Shown: one piece after another, positions 19,450 through 34,735 of the stretch
How positions within the stretch are numbered: position 1 is the stretch's first letter
Layout of the letters: each line of letters begins with the position of its first letter
NCBI GenBank assembly: GCA_937901165.1
Contig: CALCGS010000031.1
Coordinates: 1 to 34,896 of the forward strand
Length of the DNA stretch: 34,896 nucleotides
Reading direction: 5' to 3'
Origin: an uncultured Alphaproteobacteria bacterium
GTDB taxonomy: Bacteria > Pseudomonadota > Alphaproteobacteria > Rs-D84
Notes under the pieces: generated by a model
The model's input: the letters and a program-made list of their open reading frames with translations, nothing else
Database searches by the model: none
What the model was told of the DNA's origin: nothing
Position numbers and translations under genes: made by a program

Positions 19450-19523
19450 TGGGGTGTCGTCTAATGGTAGGACAAGAGATTTTGGTTCTCTTTATCATGG
19501 TTCGAATCCGTGCGCCCCAACCA
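19450..19523 (+). tRNA. tRNA-Gln (anticodon UUG)
   Basis: TGGGGTGTCGTCTAATGGTAGGACAAGAGATTTTGGTTCTCTTTATCATGGTTCGAATCCGTGCGCCCCAACCA. The acceptor stem is TGGGGTG/CGCCCCA, the anticodon stem AGAGA/TCTCT with loop TTTTGGT, and the T-loop GGTTCGAATCC. CCA is encoded. Confidence 0.9.
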
Positions 19524-19534
19524 AAATTAAACAA

Positions 19535-19556
19535 TACCCCCAACGGGGTATTTTTT
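19535..19556 (+). terminator. rho-independent terminator of tRNA-Gln
   Basis: TACCCC-CAAC-GGGGTA hairpin followed by TTTTTT. Confidence 0.7.
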
Positions 19557-19563
19557 AATTTTC

Positions 19564-19620
19564 ATGGCGCACGGATACGCCAGAGCGAAGCGCATGGCGA
19601 ATACGCAGATGAACAATTAG
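19564..19620 (+). pseudogene. remnant of the 3' end of a GIY-YIG nuclease gene
   Basis: The 19-codon frame MAHGYARAKRMANTQMNN* shares G-Y-A-x-A-K-R (GGATACGC... at DNA level) with the C-terminus GSGYAFAKRHFWK* of the intact GIY-YIG gene at 20323-20568. About 55 nt downstream it is followed by the same ~105-bp repeat that directly follows the intact gene. The match is short, so this is tentative. Confidence 0.4.
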
Positions 19621-19676
19621 CAACCGCGCAAAAACGGATATTTTTAATTAGAGTTTTTGCCCTGCGGTTGGTTATT

Positions 19677-19780
19677 GTTTATCAAGGTCTCGTACGCATT
19701 CCAGAGAGTAAAACAAATACCCTTTCATCAGTTCGAAAGTCAAATTTCGATTTTTTATCTTTTTAAACACACTTTCGAAC
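19677..19780 (+). repeat. direct repeat A1 (~104 bp) ending in copy 1 of the 50-bp inverted-arm element (arms 19731-19740 / 19771-19780)
   Basis: GTTTATCAAGGTCTCGTACGCATTCCAGAGAGTAAAACAAATAC...GTTCGAAAGT-30 nt-ACTTTCGAAC aligns along its length with 20568-20672. Confidence 0.85.
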
Positions 19781-19801
19781 CAACTTTAAAATAAAAAATT
19801 A

Positions 19802-19829
19802 TTGTATTTACAAATAATTATATTATAAT
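19802..19829 (+). promoter_or_regulatory. candidate sigma70-type promoter for the 111-aa ORF
   Basis: TTGTAT-16 nt-TATAAT lies 22 nt downstream of the 50-bp element. An AAGGA RBS sits 6 nt before the ATG at 19851. Confidence 0.35.
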
Positions 19830-19850
19830 GCGCCCAACAAAGGAAAAATT

Positions 19851-20186
19851 ATGACAATTACAATAATAACAATATGTGGTGACCCGTTTAAGTGGGAATC
19901 AGAAATCACATATCTTGCTGAACGAATGACTTGTTCTGGGAAATATTGTGTTTTAACACCAGTTATTCCGTTTATAAAACATCCACCTGTGGGGGGTATG
20001 TTTACAGCCTCAGAAATAGGTCGTTTAGTTGATGCGCAACGTATAAAGATAAATTTATCGTCGGCAATATTAGTTATGGATACAAACGGTGTCGTTGATG
20101 AAGTAACTCAATGTGAAGTAGCCTATGCGAAAATGAAGAAAAAGCAAATAATGTATTACAGCCAGGAAATACATAATTGGAGATAA
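19851..20186 (+). CDS. hypothetical protein (111 aa); weak resemblance to small Rossmann-like nucleoside 2-deoxyribosyltransferase-like (DUF4406-type) proteins
   Basis: Good RBS. The N-terminal beta-strand-like ITIITICGD and the C-terminal SSAILVMD...DEVTQCEVAYAKMKKKQIMY pattern underlie the weak resemblance. The family assignment is a guess from pattern only. Confidence 0.6.
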   Translation: MTITIITICGDPFKWESEITYLAERMTCSGKYCVLTPVIPFIKHPPVGGMFTASEIGRLVDAQRIKINLSSAILVMDTNGVVDEVTQCEVAYAKMKKKQIMYYSQEIHNWR

Positions 20187-20215
20187 ACTCGCGTTTTGCC
20201 AGCACCCCACAACCA
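20186..20215 (+). repeat. tRNA-3'-end-like motif copy X1 (direct)
   Basis: AACTCGCGTTTTGCCAGCACCCCACAACCA begins on the last base of the ORF111 stop codon. The core matches revcomp of X3 at 18 of 22 positions, and its left part is identical to X2 (AACTCGCGTTT). Confidence 0.7.
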
Positions 20216-20310
20216 CACTTCGCGCCTGCGACGCTTCGTGTGGCGGGCCACACGGACGGAGCAGTTATCGCAAAGTAGTGTCCACCGTAGCCTTGGCGTA
20301 GGCGGACAGG
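20186..20310 (+). ncRNA. candidate structured GC-rich leader / ncRNA upstream of the GIY-YIG gene
   Basis: A strongly GC-enriched stretch of ~125 nt in an AT-rich genome. GTGTGG (20238-20243) can pair either with CCACAC at 20213-20218 or with CCACAC at 20248-20253. A further stem GTCCACC (20280-20286)/GGCGGAC (20301-20307) abuts the AGGAA RBS at 20308-20312. Confidence 0.3.
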
Positions 20311-20322
20311 AATAAAATTTAA

Positions 20323-20568
20323 ATGTTTTATGTATATCTTATAAAAAGCATTTCCCACCCTGAACAAAAATACATCGGTCAAACAGATGATTTGAAACAA
20401 CGGCTAAAGCAACATAATGCAGGATATTCAATACACACAGCAAAATATAAACCATGGGAATTGGTAAATTACTTTGCTTTTACCTCAAAAGATGCAGCAT
20501 TAAAATTTGAACAATATCTTAAAACAGGTTCCGGATACGCATTCGCAAAAAGACATTTTTGGAAATAG
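20323..20568 (+). CDS. small GIY-YIG (URI-domain only, COG2827/UPF0213-like) nuclease family protein
   Basis: 81 aa. YVYLIKS...KYIGQT forms the GIY...YIG strands, followed by LKQRLKQHN and a C-terminal GSGYAFAKRHFW, typical of the stand-alone small GIY-YIG family. Confidence 0.85.
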   Translation: MFYVYLIKSISHPEQKYIGQTDDLKQRLKQHNAGYSIHTAKYKPWELVNYFAFTSKDAALKFEQYLKTGSGYAFAKRHFWK

Positions 20569-20672
20569 TTTATCAAGGCCTCGTGCGCATTCCAGAGAGT
20601 AAAACAAATACTCTTCCGCAAAGTTCGAAAGTCAATTTTTCTATTTTTAACTACTATCTGGCACTTTCGAAC
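20568..20672 (+). repeat. direct repeat A2 (~105 bp) ending in copy 2 of the 50-bp inverted-arm element (arms 20623-20632 / 20663-20672)
   Basis: It starts on the last base of the GIY-YIG stop codon and aligns with 19677-19780. Confidence 0.85.
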
Positions 20673-20770
20673 TTTTTAATACATTGCAAATAGTAGATAT
20701 TGTTTTCGAACTGATAAAAACACTACATTCACAATAAAAACATGCTCTGAATATATTTATCGTTCATTAT

Positions 20771-20792
20771 GGTTGTGGTGTGTGGGCGAAAC
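20771..20792 (-). repeat. tRNA-3'-end-like motif copy X3 (inverted); left arm of a perfect 22-bp inverted repeat
   Basis: GGTTGTGGTGTGTGGGCGAAAC is the exact reverse complement of 21467-21488. Confidence 0.9.
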
Positions 20793-20812
20793 ATTAACAG
20801 TATAAAAATCTT

Positions 20813-21361
20813 TTATCTGGAATTATTTAAAGCAGATTGTGTATTACGAATGCGTTCTTGCAACGCTTTATATTTGAGACGTCCGTTTATTCTCCCATCA
20901 AACCCTTTTCTATGTTCATGGGTGTGCAGGCAAAACCAATCTTGTCGCAAATGAGAAGAAATCATATAAGAAAACTTTTTCAGCACGCGTTCCACAATCG
21001 TTTTATATGTATCAGAAGGCAATAACGTAATACCATTTGTAGCCCTATCACCACCATAATATTTCCATTCTAAAAAAACATCTATTTCATATGGATACGG
21101 TGGCAAACCATTATTGTAAAGTTTAGGATTATAATATTTTTCCCAATATGCACTTAATGCAGAATCTTCCTGTATTCTTTCGTGCAACCAATCTTCGTGG
21201 GATTTCCTGAAATCTGGTGATTCAAGAGTCACAATAGTTTTGTGTAAGGAATTGGAGTTCCAATGTAAAGTAAAAAAATCTGGAGTATTTACTTCTTGTA
21301 CATAATATAACAATTCATAAATGTTATGATAGAATAATTCCCAATCCGGACGTTCTGACAT
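20813..21361 (-). CDS. hypothetical protein (182 aa), His/Trp/Tyr-rich, no family recognised
   Basis: Uninterrupted ORF that fills the segment between the 22-bp inverted repeats. It contains HEDWLHE and HTHEH motifs. Confidence 0.65.
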   Translation of the reverse strand: MSERPDWELFYHNIYELLYYVQEVNTPDFFTLHWNSNSLHKTIVTLESPDFRKSHEDWLHERIQEDSALSAYWEKYYNPKLYNNGLPPYPYEIDVFLEWKYYGGDRATNGITLLPSDTYKTIVERVLKKFSYMISSHLRQDWFCLHTHEHRKGFDGRINGRLKYKALQERIRNTQSALNNSR

Positions 21362-21459
21362 AATATATACCTATATAATTGCTCTCACACTCCCTATTAT
21401 CTAAAGGAAAGTATATATATAAGTTCGATAAAAATCAACATATTATTAACATTGATAAC

Positions 21460-21497
21460 AACTCGCGTTTCGCCCACACACCACAACCAAAATTAAA
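21460..21497 (+). repeat. tRNA-3'-end-like motif copy X2 (direct); right arm of the perfect 22-bp inverted repeat
   Basis: AACTCGCGTTTCGCCCACACACCACAACCAAAATTAAA shares AACCAAAATTAAA with the tRNA-Gln 3' end and flank (19518-19531). Confidence 0.85.
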
Positions 21498-21500
21498 AAA

Positions 21501-21521
21501 ATGCCCGTTGGGGCATTTTTT
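21501..21521 (+). terminator. orphan terminator-like hairpin following X2 (mimics the tRNA-Gln terminator)
   Basis: ATGCCC-GTTG-GGGCAT followed by TTTTTT. It has the same architecture and spacing as 19535-19556, but no plus-strand gene ends here. Confidence 0.5.
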
Positions 21522-21545: not shown

Positions 21546-21595
21546 GTTCGAAAGTCAATTTTTTAATTTTTGTATTCTTATCAGCACTTTCGAAC
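21546..21595. repeat. copy 3 of the 50-bp inverted-arm element
   Basis: GTTCGAAAGT-30 nt-ACTTTCGAAC. A TATAAT hexamer lies about 25 nt downstream. Confidence 0.85.
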
Positions 21596-21669
21596 TACGG
21601 AATTTTGTTTCTGCTGTAAAAGGCTATAATCTGCCATCATTTTTTCCACTTATCTCTTGCCCGATTTCC

Positions 21670-21718
21670 AACAACTCGGCTCGCGAATTGCACAGACAGC
21701 ACAAACAAAAATTAAAAA
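21670..21718 (+). repeat. tRNA-3'-end-like motif copy X4 (direct, degenerate)
   Basis: AACAACTCGGCTCGCGAATTGCACAGACAGCACAAACAAAAATTAAAAA aligns with X2 when a few indels are allowed. Confidence 0.45.
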
Positions 21719-23638: not shown

Positions 23639-23688
23639 ATTCGAAAGTCAATTTTTCTATTTTTAACTTCTATCTTGCACTTTCGAAC
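23639..23688. repeat. copy 4 of the 50-bp inverted-arm element
   Basis: ATTCGAAAGT-30 nt-ACTTTCGAAC matches copy 2 at 47 of 50 positions. It is preceded by CAATACCCCAAC, which resembles the left half of the tRNA-Gln terminator (CAATACCCCCAAC). Confidence 0.85.
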
Positions 23689-34000: not shown

Positions 34001-34735
34001 TTATCTCGCCCGGACAACCCTACAAAAAGTCACACCACAAACAGACCGAACACCTGATTTTAAAAGCACTTTACGCAATTCTTTAAATGTCGCACCAGAT
34101 GTCATAACATCATCAACCAATAAAATATTTTTATCACGCAATCTTTCAGGATGAACAACTGTGAAAACACCGCTAATATTTTTAGCACGCTGGACCGAAT
34201 TTTTATGTCCCATATCCGGACGATATTTCCTGTGCAACGAACCCAAATCTAGTTTTATTCCCAACGCCTTGGAAATAGGACGAGCCAACAAAACCGATTG
34301 ATTATAACCACGATGAAACAATCTGCGCCACGCCAAAGGAACAGGAATAATCAAATCTATATCAGATAAATCAACATCACGAAGTGCCCACAACATAGCA
34401 TTTGACATAAATTTATAATATTCTGTTTTTCCACAATGCTTAAATGGCAACATCACATTTTTAGACGCTTCATCATAAACACACGCAGAACGAATCCAAT
34501 CTAATTCGCATTGTCCAGACGCACAAACAGGACACATCATAGATTCTAATCTTTCGTACCCAAATAACAATGGATAACCACATTTACAACACTTTTCGCC
34601 ATCAATCCAATTAAAAGATGCCCAGCAAGTTTCACACAACAAACCGTTTTCAGAAACTTTTTCACCACACATTACACAACATGGCGGAAATAAAAAATCA
34701 ATACAATGATTTAAAATTTTACCAAAACTTACCAT
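34001..34735 (-). CDS. comF: ComF family protein (zinc-ribbon plus phosphoribosyltransferase domain)
   Basis: N-terminal Cys pairs (CCVMCG, CETC, CCKCG, CPVC) and the C-terminal PRTase motif ILLVDDVMTSGATF. Confidence 0.85.
   Translation of the reverse strand: MVSFGKILNHCIDFLFPPCCVMCGEKVSENGLLCETCWASFNWIDGEKCCKCGYPLLFGYERLESMMCPVCASGQCELDWIRSACVYDEASKNVMLPFKHCGKTEYYKFMSNAMLWALRDVDLSDIDLIIPVPLAWRRLFHRGYNQSVLLARPISKALGIKLDLGSLHRKYRPDMGHKNSVQRAKNISGVFTVVHPERLRDKNILLVDDVMTSGATFKELRKVLLKSGVRSVCGVTFCRVVRAR

Follow-up and report, generated by a model that had tools for sequence, protein, structure and literature searches.

Inverted tRNA-Gln-like repeats of 22 bp as probable boundary sites of a replaceable gene slot in Candidatus Enterousia

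Background

Islands anchored at tRNA genes and arrays of gene cassettes are both known kinds of locus. Here, we describe a tRNA-anchored cassette array with a feature of which our literature search found no description: a bracket of two inverted pseudo-tRNA ends around a gene. The array lies in a stretch of 34,896 nt (hereafter, the window; GenBank assembly GCA_937901165.1, contig CALCGS010000031.1) from an uncultured alphaproteobacterium of the order Rs-D84. In an island that starts at a tRNA-Gln(UUG) gene, a perfect inverted repeat of 22 bp (20771-21488) encloses a single gene, ORF182. We call the left, inverted copy X2, the right, direct copy X3, and a diverged direct copy further left X1; direct copies, oriented like the tRNA gene, are A-type arms, and inverted copies are B-type arms. 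Our analysis indicates that the pair very probably marks the boundaries of a replaceable gene slot within the array, with the perfect identity of X2 and X3 coming from two consensus copies.

The tycheposon islands of Prochlorococcus are tRNA-anchored and come from integrative elements and their remnants (bioRxiv 10.1101/2020.12.28.424599). Our array resembles them in being placed immediately 3' of a tRNA gene within a streamlined genome, in having tandem units with direct partial or pseudo-tRNA 3' ends between them (here, the A arms), and in its unrelated accessory cargo, with many units lacking an integrase. Unlike tycheposons, its minus-type units also have an inverted pseudo-tRNA end (the B arm), giving the 22-bp inverted bracket. 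Its units hold single genes and measure 0.5-1.8 kb, its pseudo-ends make up a conserved family of their own, separate from the true tRNA end, and no unit with a tyrosine or large serine recombinase was found among the approximately 80 array loci inspected.

Chromosomal integron arrays have homogeneous attC sites, such as the Vibrio repeats. As in these arrays, lineage-specific repeats lie here between unrelated and mostly single-gene cassettes, each gene is bracketed by inverted core sequences, and the array is reshuffled between strains. Unlike integrons, there is no IntI, attI or Pc, and a GTTRRRY / RYYYAAC core is missing from the 22-mer. The cassettes have their own promoters and terminators, stand in both orientations and are anchored at a tRNA gene. 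Moreover, arms that flank a junction between cassettes are less alike than arms that flank cargo, the opposite of what attC hairpins would predict. An integron proper was rejected: tRNA-Gln stands at the head of the array, the arrays of the 34 genomes surveyed have no integrase nearby, and the 22-mer starts with GTTTCGC and not with GTTRRRY. An attC-like hairpin formed by a junction (an A arm followed by an inverted B arm) was also rejected, since junction-flanking arms are the least similar class.

Two further systems place discrete genes at short sites. The pdif (Xer) modules of Acinetobacter plasmids are bounded by 28-bp XerC-spacer-XerD sites; like our array, they hold discrete genes between inverted sites, alternate in site orientation and can present one module in different contexts. 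Our array differs in being chromosomal and tRNA-anchored, and its arms are not dif-like: arms plus flanks mismatch dif at 15-17 of 28 positions and have no XerC-spacer-XerD layout, so Xer/dif sites were rejected. Neisseria has minimal mobile elements and dRS3/NIME repeat arrays. There, different whole-gene cassettes occupy one conserved site across strains and species, as is seen here, and in Neisseria too short conserved repeats give the homology for exchange with no element-encoded enzyme. Unlike in Neisseria, both flanks of our slot end in an inverted, tRNA-derived 22-mer with exact cargo boundaries.

Results and discussion

At the level of geometry, X2 (plus-strand reading GGTTGTGGTGTGTGGGCGAAAC, 20771-20792) is the exact reverse complement of X3 (GTTTCGCCCACACACCACAACC, 21467-21488, plus strand), with 22 of 22 nucleotides matching, as an earlier note on this DNA had reported. 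The similarity continues outward, to 93% over 30 nt (20763-20792 against 21467-21496). When the 22-mer was searched with up to 3 mismatches, X2 and X3 were the only matches in the window, and 100 dinucleotide-preserving shuffles gave none. The 22-mer has no internal dyad symmetry. The 674 nt between the arms consist of the minus-strand ORF182 (182 aa) and its promoter-like region. The same note was also right that no target-site duplication borders the pair: the outer flanks, TTCATTAT before X2 and AAAATTAA after X3, are partly inverted and not direct repeats. Its match of 18 of 22 for X1 was reproduced as well (20193-20214, 4 mismatches). The site order X1, X2, X3 is direct, inverted, direct (+, -, +), as the note stated, although in one phrase it named X3 as the inverted site by a slip for X2. 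Sites also alternate in orientation (-, +, -, +) in two loci of other genomes, L057 and L073. A position weight matrix (PWM) of the motif scores both X2 and X3 at 42.1 bits and X1 (GTTTTGCCAGCACCCCACAACC followed by A, 20193-20215, plus strand), a diverged A-type arm and the left end of junction J1, at 33.5 bits.

The motif is confined to this locus within its own assembly (924 kb, 145 contigs), so the note's idea that the 22-mer might be found nowhere else holds inside the genome and fails across the genus, where the motif is widespread. Loci matching this one come from metagenome-assembled genomes (MAGs) of Candidatus Enterousia or Alphaproteobacteria from rumen and from yak, buffalo, sheep and horse gut. 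Candidatus Enterousia belongs to the order Rs-D84 and has genomes of ~0.9 Mb (PMC12306168). These are uncultured bacteria of the farm-animal gut, almost without classical mobile elements, as judged from rve transposases (0 of 34 genomes). Among the 18 genera of its family, the 22-mer is restricted to this one, and roughly a quarter of its species have the motif; the slot system belongs to a sub-clade of Candidatus Enterousia. After a search with nhmmer and a 23-nt profile returned no match, a scan with the PWM retrieved 91 arms in 46 loci, every one inside a tRNA-Gln-anchored cassette array. In viral contigs, the motif gave five matches, which is the estimated chance level, and none had A or B flanks.

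Conservation of the motif is high, with 17 of the 22 positions at least 93% conserved over the 91 arms, and the terminators adjoining the arms differ freely, unlike these positions. The consensus is GTTTCGCCCACACACCACAACC followed by A, that is, the sequence found in the window. Copies identical to it occur in many species, and it was the commonest variant in a first set of 27 arm pairs (12 of 54 arms). Perfect pairs are found in 3 of these 27 and in 3 of 33 in a later set. Thus, X2 and X3 are identical because both are consensus copies, and the identity that had seemed to single out this pair does not mark a private event.

The arms fall into two contexts, which we typed by the inner flank (AACTCGC or AT-rich) and the outer flank (terminator or B-side spacer). 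An A-type arm consists of AACTCGC, the 22-mer and a terminator, and is direct. A B-type arm is inverted, with an AT-rich inner flank that is often the cargo's own terminator, and an outer flank formed by a conserved spacer toward a repeat element that we call D1. X1 and X3 are of type A and X2 of type B; the conserved AACTCGC that defines A-type arms lies at 21460-21466 (plus strand) beside X3. Among the 90 distinct arms, 36 have the inner flank ACTCGC with a terminator-like outer flank, and 37 have an AT-rich inner flank with the B spacer outside. Four further ACTCGC-flanked arms are followed by the leader of a GIY-YIG module (described below), and in five arms with a terminator outside, the inner flank is a variant of ACTCGC. 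A layout shared by many species reads tRNA-Gln, terminator, D1, spacer, inverted B arm, cargo, A arm, terminator, D1, and onward. In the window, the island runs from tRNA-Gln (19450-19523) to MerR and GyrA genes (~26.2 kb).

The anchor of the array, tRNA-Gln(UUG) (19450-19523, plus strand), ends in ...CCGTGCGCCCCAACCA, which serves as the model for the 22-mer. A common arm variant, CGCCCGCACACCCCAACCA, agrees with this end in 13 of 16 positions, including all of the last 9 nt. A arms and tRNA-Gln carry common families of downstream terminators: the families of the tRNA-Gln terminator hairpin (19533-19552, plus strand) are found after A-type arms, and the family of the two-way terminator hairpin after X3 (21496-21521) is found after tRNA-Gln in other species. 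Because of this match, the common terminators and the placement of GIY-YIG modules after the CCA, we regard the A arms as pseudo-tRNA-Gln 3' ends. These comparisons are best explained if the motif is a mimic or a derivative of the tRNA-Gln 3' end. In Rfam searches, both at the gathering score and at E<=5, only two tRNAs were recognized, with no match for the arms, D1 or the GIY leader.

The B arms may have the same origin. Their flanks align weakly with the terminators, with the best cases in register and 6 of 31 scoring beyond the 95th shuffle percentile, which suggests that a B arm with its flank is an old inverted copy of the 22-mer plus terminator. We found no inverted pseudo-tRNA-end copies in two other arrays of the same genome, at tRNA-Glu(UUC) (contig C46) and tRNA-Gln(CUG) (contig C32), so the inverted B arm is special to the tRNA-Gln(UUG) motif family.

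What lies between the arms is unrelated from one species to another. Thirty-three adjacent inverted A/B pairs were retrieved, with inner lengths of 490-1820 nt, and the largest open reading frames of these bracketed cassettes form 23 unrelated clusters. As read from the sequence, cargo includes a repeat protein, a methyltransferase, lipoproteins and orphans, together with metallophosphoesterase-, subtilase-, exonuclease- and nucleotidyltransferase-like proteins. Sixteen cargo families read from A to B and six from B to A; since both directions occur, the arms have no fixed link with a gene's 3' end. A fixed slot by tRNA-Gln that takes at least 23 unrelated gene families means that streamlined genomes can still exchange accessory genes.

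In the window, the cargo is ORF182 (20813-21361, minus strand), an orphan, mostly helical protein without a family match. It has 10 homologues, and an AlphaFold2 model built from 8 homologues reached a mean predicted local distance difference test (pLDDT) of 59.5, too poor for a fold search. A promoter-like site (TTGATT-17-TATACT, 21438-21410, minus strand) lies inside the arms, so the ORF182 mRNA would exclude X3. A metagenome relative, L028, carries an ORF182 cassette that is 79% identical overall, with this promoter-like site ~98% conserved. In L028 (2915-2940 and 3618-3640), the middle of the A arm has decayed (GGTTGGGGTTGTTAAGCGAAAC), and hardly any change is seen in the promoter region or in the 26 nt that precede the B arm. 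Searches of Pfam, NCBIfam and PADLOC gave no family match for ORF182, ORF111, ORF218, ORF190 and ORF144; among all island reading frames, these databases gave no recombinase, and no defence match beyond weak ones to GIY-YIG.

Comparisons between genomes indicate that the inter-arm content is replaced, usually with the arms included, and that the segment does not flip. L070 has the same X1 variant as the window, here at an un-invaded junction, with D1 98% and the spacer 96% identical and the sequence identical up to the arm. The stretch corresponding to 20704-20793 (from the third box of the spacer through the X2 arm) is 96% identical despite a different cargo, an unrelated protein of 187 aa, and both arms of L070 carry one rare arm variant. 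In L073 and L084, a tract of 98.5% identity runs from 3 nt outside A through 9 nt outside B; in L076 and L106, a tract of 97.5% identity runs from 3 nt outside B through 1 nt outside A. In three of five comparisons (L073/L084, L076/L106 and window/L070), the outer edges of the arms are where the exchanged tract stops.

Arms around one cargo co-vary. The mean number of differences per 22 nt is 2.30 for cargo-flanking arms, 4.0 for junction-flanking arms and 2.79 for random pairs (Mann-Whitney p=0.012), and an earlier shuffle test of arm similarity on 27 pairs gave p=0.02. These two tests lend weak to moderate support to gene conversion, which the earlier note had suggested, or to co-inheritance of the two arms. 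Strains that are near-identical to the window's also differ at the locus. L032 is without 19781-20558 (ORF111, X1 and GIY-YIG), with the joint in D3-D1, where D3 is a repeat of the GIY-YIG module; in L033, the ORF111 cassette stands behind the ORF182 cassette, with the joint in D1. These differences indicate that the locus is being reshuffled. Arms and cargo often move jointly, and D1 is a second point prone to recombination.

We therefore regard the pair, with high confidence, as the two boundaries of a gene slot whose content can be replaced, within a cassette array anchored at tRNA-Gln. We lean slightly towards a more specific reading, in which the arms are boundary or recombination sites of the slot and the exchange enzyme acts in trans, and we give equal weight to the arms being active sites themselves and to their being conserved relics used by homologous recombination. 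We infer that DNA would be broken and joined at or beside the arms by such an enzyme. X3 is a pseudo-tRNA-end repeat of the sort seen at unit boundaries in islands at tRNA 3' ends, and X2 is an inverted copy of the motif abutting the conserved spacer and D1, with a flank that resembles a decayed terminator in the same register. One candidate route is a cut immediately 3' of ...CAACCA that is then mended from a donor, by gap repair or homologous recombination; another is the action of a site-specific recombinase whose gene lies elsewhere. Only tentatively, we put forward a form of exchange in which inverted pseudo-tRNA-Gln ends define single-gene cassettes that are swapped without an element-encoded recombinase, resembling recombinase-mediated cassette exchange or a double-cut gap repair. 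DNA would break right after CAACCA, and these gut Alphaproteobacteria with reduced genomes would have a place set aside for trying out accessory genes.

Active arms would make this a cassette system unlike integrons, with no IntI or attC, a tRNA anchor and inverted boundary sites. If they are mere relics, the locus still offers a clear natural case in which short repeats drive gene replacement. The arm site is short and well-defined, which makes it amenable to direct laboratory testing.

Several results weigh against exchange at the arms themselves. In L049/L057 and L066/L074, the tracts end at the A edge but run ~150 nt past B, through D1, and such variable B-side ends (9 nt in one case, ~150 nt in others) also fit plain homologous recombination. 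Arms can differ between copies of one cargo (L076/L106, L049/L057), and they may decay, as in L028. An empty slot, with the inner arm edges joined within 30 nt, was found in 0 of 257 genomes of the genus, and a search for a head-to-head circle junction (outer edges within 30 nt) in metagenome contigs gave unrelated hairpins only. No enzyme could be tied to the arms, and the island is without a recombinase. The tyrosine recombinases of the assembly are XerC- and XerD-like only, and the integrases of 390-440 aa that occur in some species are not near the arrays (34 genomes). Small serine recombinases are present in 65 of 80 genomes regardless of the motif and in 12 of the 17 motif-positive ones.

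In the approximately 80 array loci, there was no tyrosine or large serine recombinase, and a serine recombinase lay within 8 kb in one of them. Elsewhere, the window's assembly carries two small serine recombinases (205-208 aa; contigs C69 and C116) and one large (contig C86). No integrase-bearing parent element with the motif was found. As to transposases, rve was found in 0 of 34 genomes, and Y1 was absent from 33 of 34, with the copies of the exception holding internal stop codons; other transposase families were not searched.

The most serious alternative is that the arms are passive relics without activity of their own, turned over by homologous recombination, a reading that we consider rather doubtful. 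A arms would be scars of old integrase insertions at tRNA-Gln and B one ancient inverted duplication of the 22-mer plus terminator; turnover would come only from RecA-type recombination in arms, D1, D3 and terminators, much as in the minimal mobile elements of Neisseria. The strain-level joints agree with it, since in L032 and L033 they lie in D1 or D3 and not in the arms, as do the variable B-side tract ends, the arm decay in some genomes, the lack of a linked recombinase and the best B flanks, which are in register with the tRNA-Gln and A terminators (6 of 31 above the shuffle percentile); a ComF-like gene in the window (34001-34735) is also in its favour. It has difficulty with the 23 unrelated cargo families that start and stop exactly at the inner arm edges, where illegitimate insertion would give ragged ones, with 17 of 22 arm positions being conserved at 93% or more beside terminators that are free to differ, and with the rare variant that L070 has in both arms beside an otherwise near-identical backbone. 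A non-autonomous transposon, with the 22-mers as terminal inverted repeats, a transposase encoded elsewhere and the gene as a passenger, is unlikely. Inverted 22-bp ends, co-varying arms around one cargo and tracts that stop at the outer arm edges in L073/L084, L076/L106 and window/L070 are what such an element would show, and the arms of L070 both have AT-rich inner flanks, as if one had been copied from the other. The earlier note had proposed a cassette of this kind, and its view that arms and cargo form an exchanged unit stands, the cargo being unrelated between species. Its transposon side is weakened by the lack of a target-site duplication and by the outcome of the searches for rve and Y1 transposases (the former in none of 34 genomes, the latter in one, only with internal stop codons). 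All 90 distinct arms lie in tRNA-Gln array contexts, unlike the many unrelated genomic sites of terminal-inverted-repeat transposons or miniature inverted-repeat transposable elements. Besides, each end keeps a fixed context of its own, inner and outer, that differs from that of the other end, the real tRNA-Gln end serves as the first left partner, and no junction of abutted ends was found in metagenome contigs.

Two other readings concern the repeat as a structure in RNA or as a switch in DNA. A plus-strand transcript of ~20764-21521, with the inverted B arm at its 5' and the A arm at its 3' side, could fold into a panhandle of 22-30 bp, possibly a site for ribonuclease III (RNase III) or a stabiliser of an antisense RNA controlling the cargo. 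The minimal RNase III substrate is ~22 bp, a promoter-like site (TTCACA-18-TATATT, 10 of 12 positions) points into X2 from the B-side spacer (20728-20757), and a terminator comes right after X3. We judge this reading very unlikely, because mismatches between paired arms have no G-U bias (G/A 14 vs A/G 10, C/T 13 vs T/C 12), the spacer promoter is not conserved in other spacer types, promoter-like sites are not above the level of shuffles (12 vs 11.2), cargo families read both ways (16 from A to B, 6 from B to A) and X3 would be outside the ORF182 mRNA. An invertible segment, where a DNA invertase flips 20793-21466 as in shufflons or phase switches, is a reading that the earlier note had offered as recent or ongoing inversion, and we consider it extremely improbable. 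Invertible segments and shufflons (Hin/Gin, Fim, Rci) share with our locus an inverted repeat of ~20-30 bp around a short segment, here perfect and of a length typical of recombination sites, and serine recombinases are encoded elsewhere in the assembly (two small, 205-208 aa, and one large). Inversion would carry AACTCGC to the B side, so hybrid arms would be expected, but we observed no convincing hybrid among the 90 distinct arms; the sole candidate (L046, 6741) has an A-family terminator. Relative to the outer flanks, ORF182 has one orientation in five independent assemblies, which are the window, the MAG JBKSMW at NCBI and Logan contigs from the sequencing runs SRR21151022, SRR7948326 and SRR26714002, whose copies of the cassette have 97.5-99% nucleotide identity. 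Unlike invertible segments, the locus has no recombinase adjacent to it and no dyad-symmetric crossover site in the 22-mer, and serine recombinases are not associated with the motif, lying within 8 kb in only 1 of ~80 loci. Rather than a promoter or alternative gene ends, the arms enclose a complete gene that has a promoter-like site of its own, and a flip would change nothing obvious.

Two known transposon families were considered and rejected. The plus-strand reading of X2 contains TGTGGGCG (20781-20788), which resembles the terminal octamer of Tn7 ends and which we take to be a coincidence. Unlike Tn7, whose ends have repeated 22-bp binding sites, the locus has a single site per end, and no rve (TnsB-type) transposase occurs in the 34 genomes. 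An IS200/IS605 element as the source of insertions 3' of CAACCA was discarded, since Y1 transposase is missing from 33 of the 34.

Other features of the locus

The GIY-YIG module of the window (20216-20618, plus strand) was inserted straight after the CCA of X1. It comprises a GC-rich structured leader (20216-20310), an 81-aa GIY-YIG gene (20323-20568) and D3 copy 2 (20559-20615). In many species, this module (~95-nt leader, 81-aa gene, D3) stands immediately behind the CCA of a tRNA-Gln, an A arm or a B arm; it abuts the CCA of tRNA-Gln in G006, G019 and G023, and that of another tRNA-Gln in G017. Besides the window, module loci are L012, L004, L006, L005, L015 and L076, and in L076 the leader was inserted beside a B arm without the GIY-YIG gene. 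Possibly, the module is a small mobile element with the tRNA-Gln 3' end as its target. The hairpins of the leader co-vary (CCACAC/GTGTGG vs CCACCC/GGGTGG; GCGTC-TGC-GACGC, GCATC-TGC-GATGC and GCCTC-TAC-GAGGC).

A 32-nt GC-rich insert (ATCCGTCTTCGCTTTGCTCCGCCGCGACTTCG or a variant) stands between ...CAACC and the B flank CATTGAAC in L078 (3561), L086 (3171), L089 (6086) and L120 (3308). Thus, three kinds of GC-rich insert (the GIY-YIG module, the leader alone and the 32-nt element) are found exactly 3' of ...CAACCA in tRNA-Gln, A arms and B arms, and because three kinds landed there, this position seems to be repeatedly broken or targeted.

Upstream of X1, a remnant of a decayed GIY-YIG module with D3 copy 1 (19560-19724, plus strand) follows the tRNA-Gln terminator, and strain L032 has a single D3-D1 copy here. 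D1 copy 1 (19731-19780, plus strand) has 10-bp inverted arms (GTTCGAAAGT/ACTTTCGAAC) and a 30-nt spacer. The cassette gene ORF111 (19851-20186, plus strand) is missing in L032 and lies behind the ORF182 cassette in L033. After the GIY-YIG module come D1 copy 2 (20623-20672, plus strand) and the B-side spacer (20673-20770, plus strand), with a third TTTCGAAC box at 20702-20711; most B spacers have such a third box after D1. D1 copy 3 (21546-21595, plus strand) is the point at which the ORF111 cassette is joined in L033. A degenerate A''-type pseudo-tRNA end (CTCTTGCCCGATTTCCAACAACTCGGCTCGCGAATTGCACAGACAGCACAAACA, 21652-21711, plus strand) of the C32 tRNA-Gln(CUG) family, comparable with L023, follows with no gene between it and D1 copy 3, and a further D1 copy lies at 23639-23688.

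D1 elements also occur on contigs C32, C46, C84, C92 and C135 of the assembly; taken with those of the window, they lie downstream of several tRNA genes (Gln-UUG, Gln-CUG, Glu-UUC, Tyr and Pro). Their 10-bp inverted arms surround an AT-rich 30-nt spacer and co-vary (GTTCGTAAGT/ATTTACGAAC and others). In the tRNA-Glu(UUC) array (C46, 1108-3330), every minus-strand gene has behind it a pseudo-tRNA-Glu end (AGTTCGTGAATTGCACAGATGGCCCTGCCA), then a terminator and a D1-like element. At tRNA-Gln(CUG) (C32, 6084-7370), a 53-nt pseudo-tRNA end (CTCTTGTCCGATTTCCAATAATTCGGCTTGCGAATTGCACAGACAGCACAACCA) precedes a ~200-nt repeat of the region downstream of the tRNA.

Finally, the assembly holds two closely similar XerD-like genes (C12, 7718-8578; C122, 101-739), which fits strain heterogeneity or the 4% contamination estimate of the MAG. 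A likely chromosomal dif (AAGGCGCATAATGTATATTATGTATAGT, 6 mismatches to that of E. coli) lies at C29, 1184 (minus strand). The ComF-like gene of the window (34001-34735, minus strand) has the architecture of a double zinc ribbon with a phosphoribosyltransferase domain, and hints at DNA uptake genes in this reduced genome.

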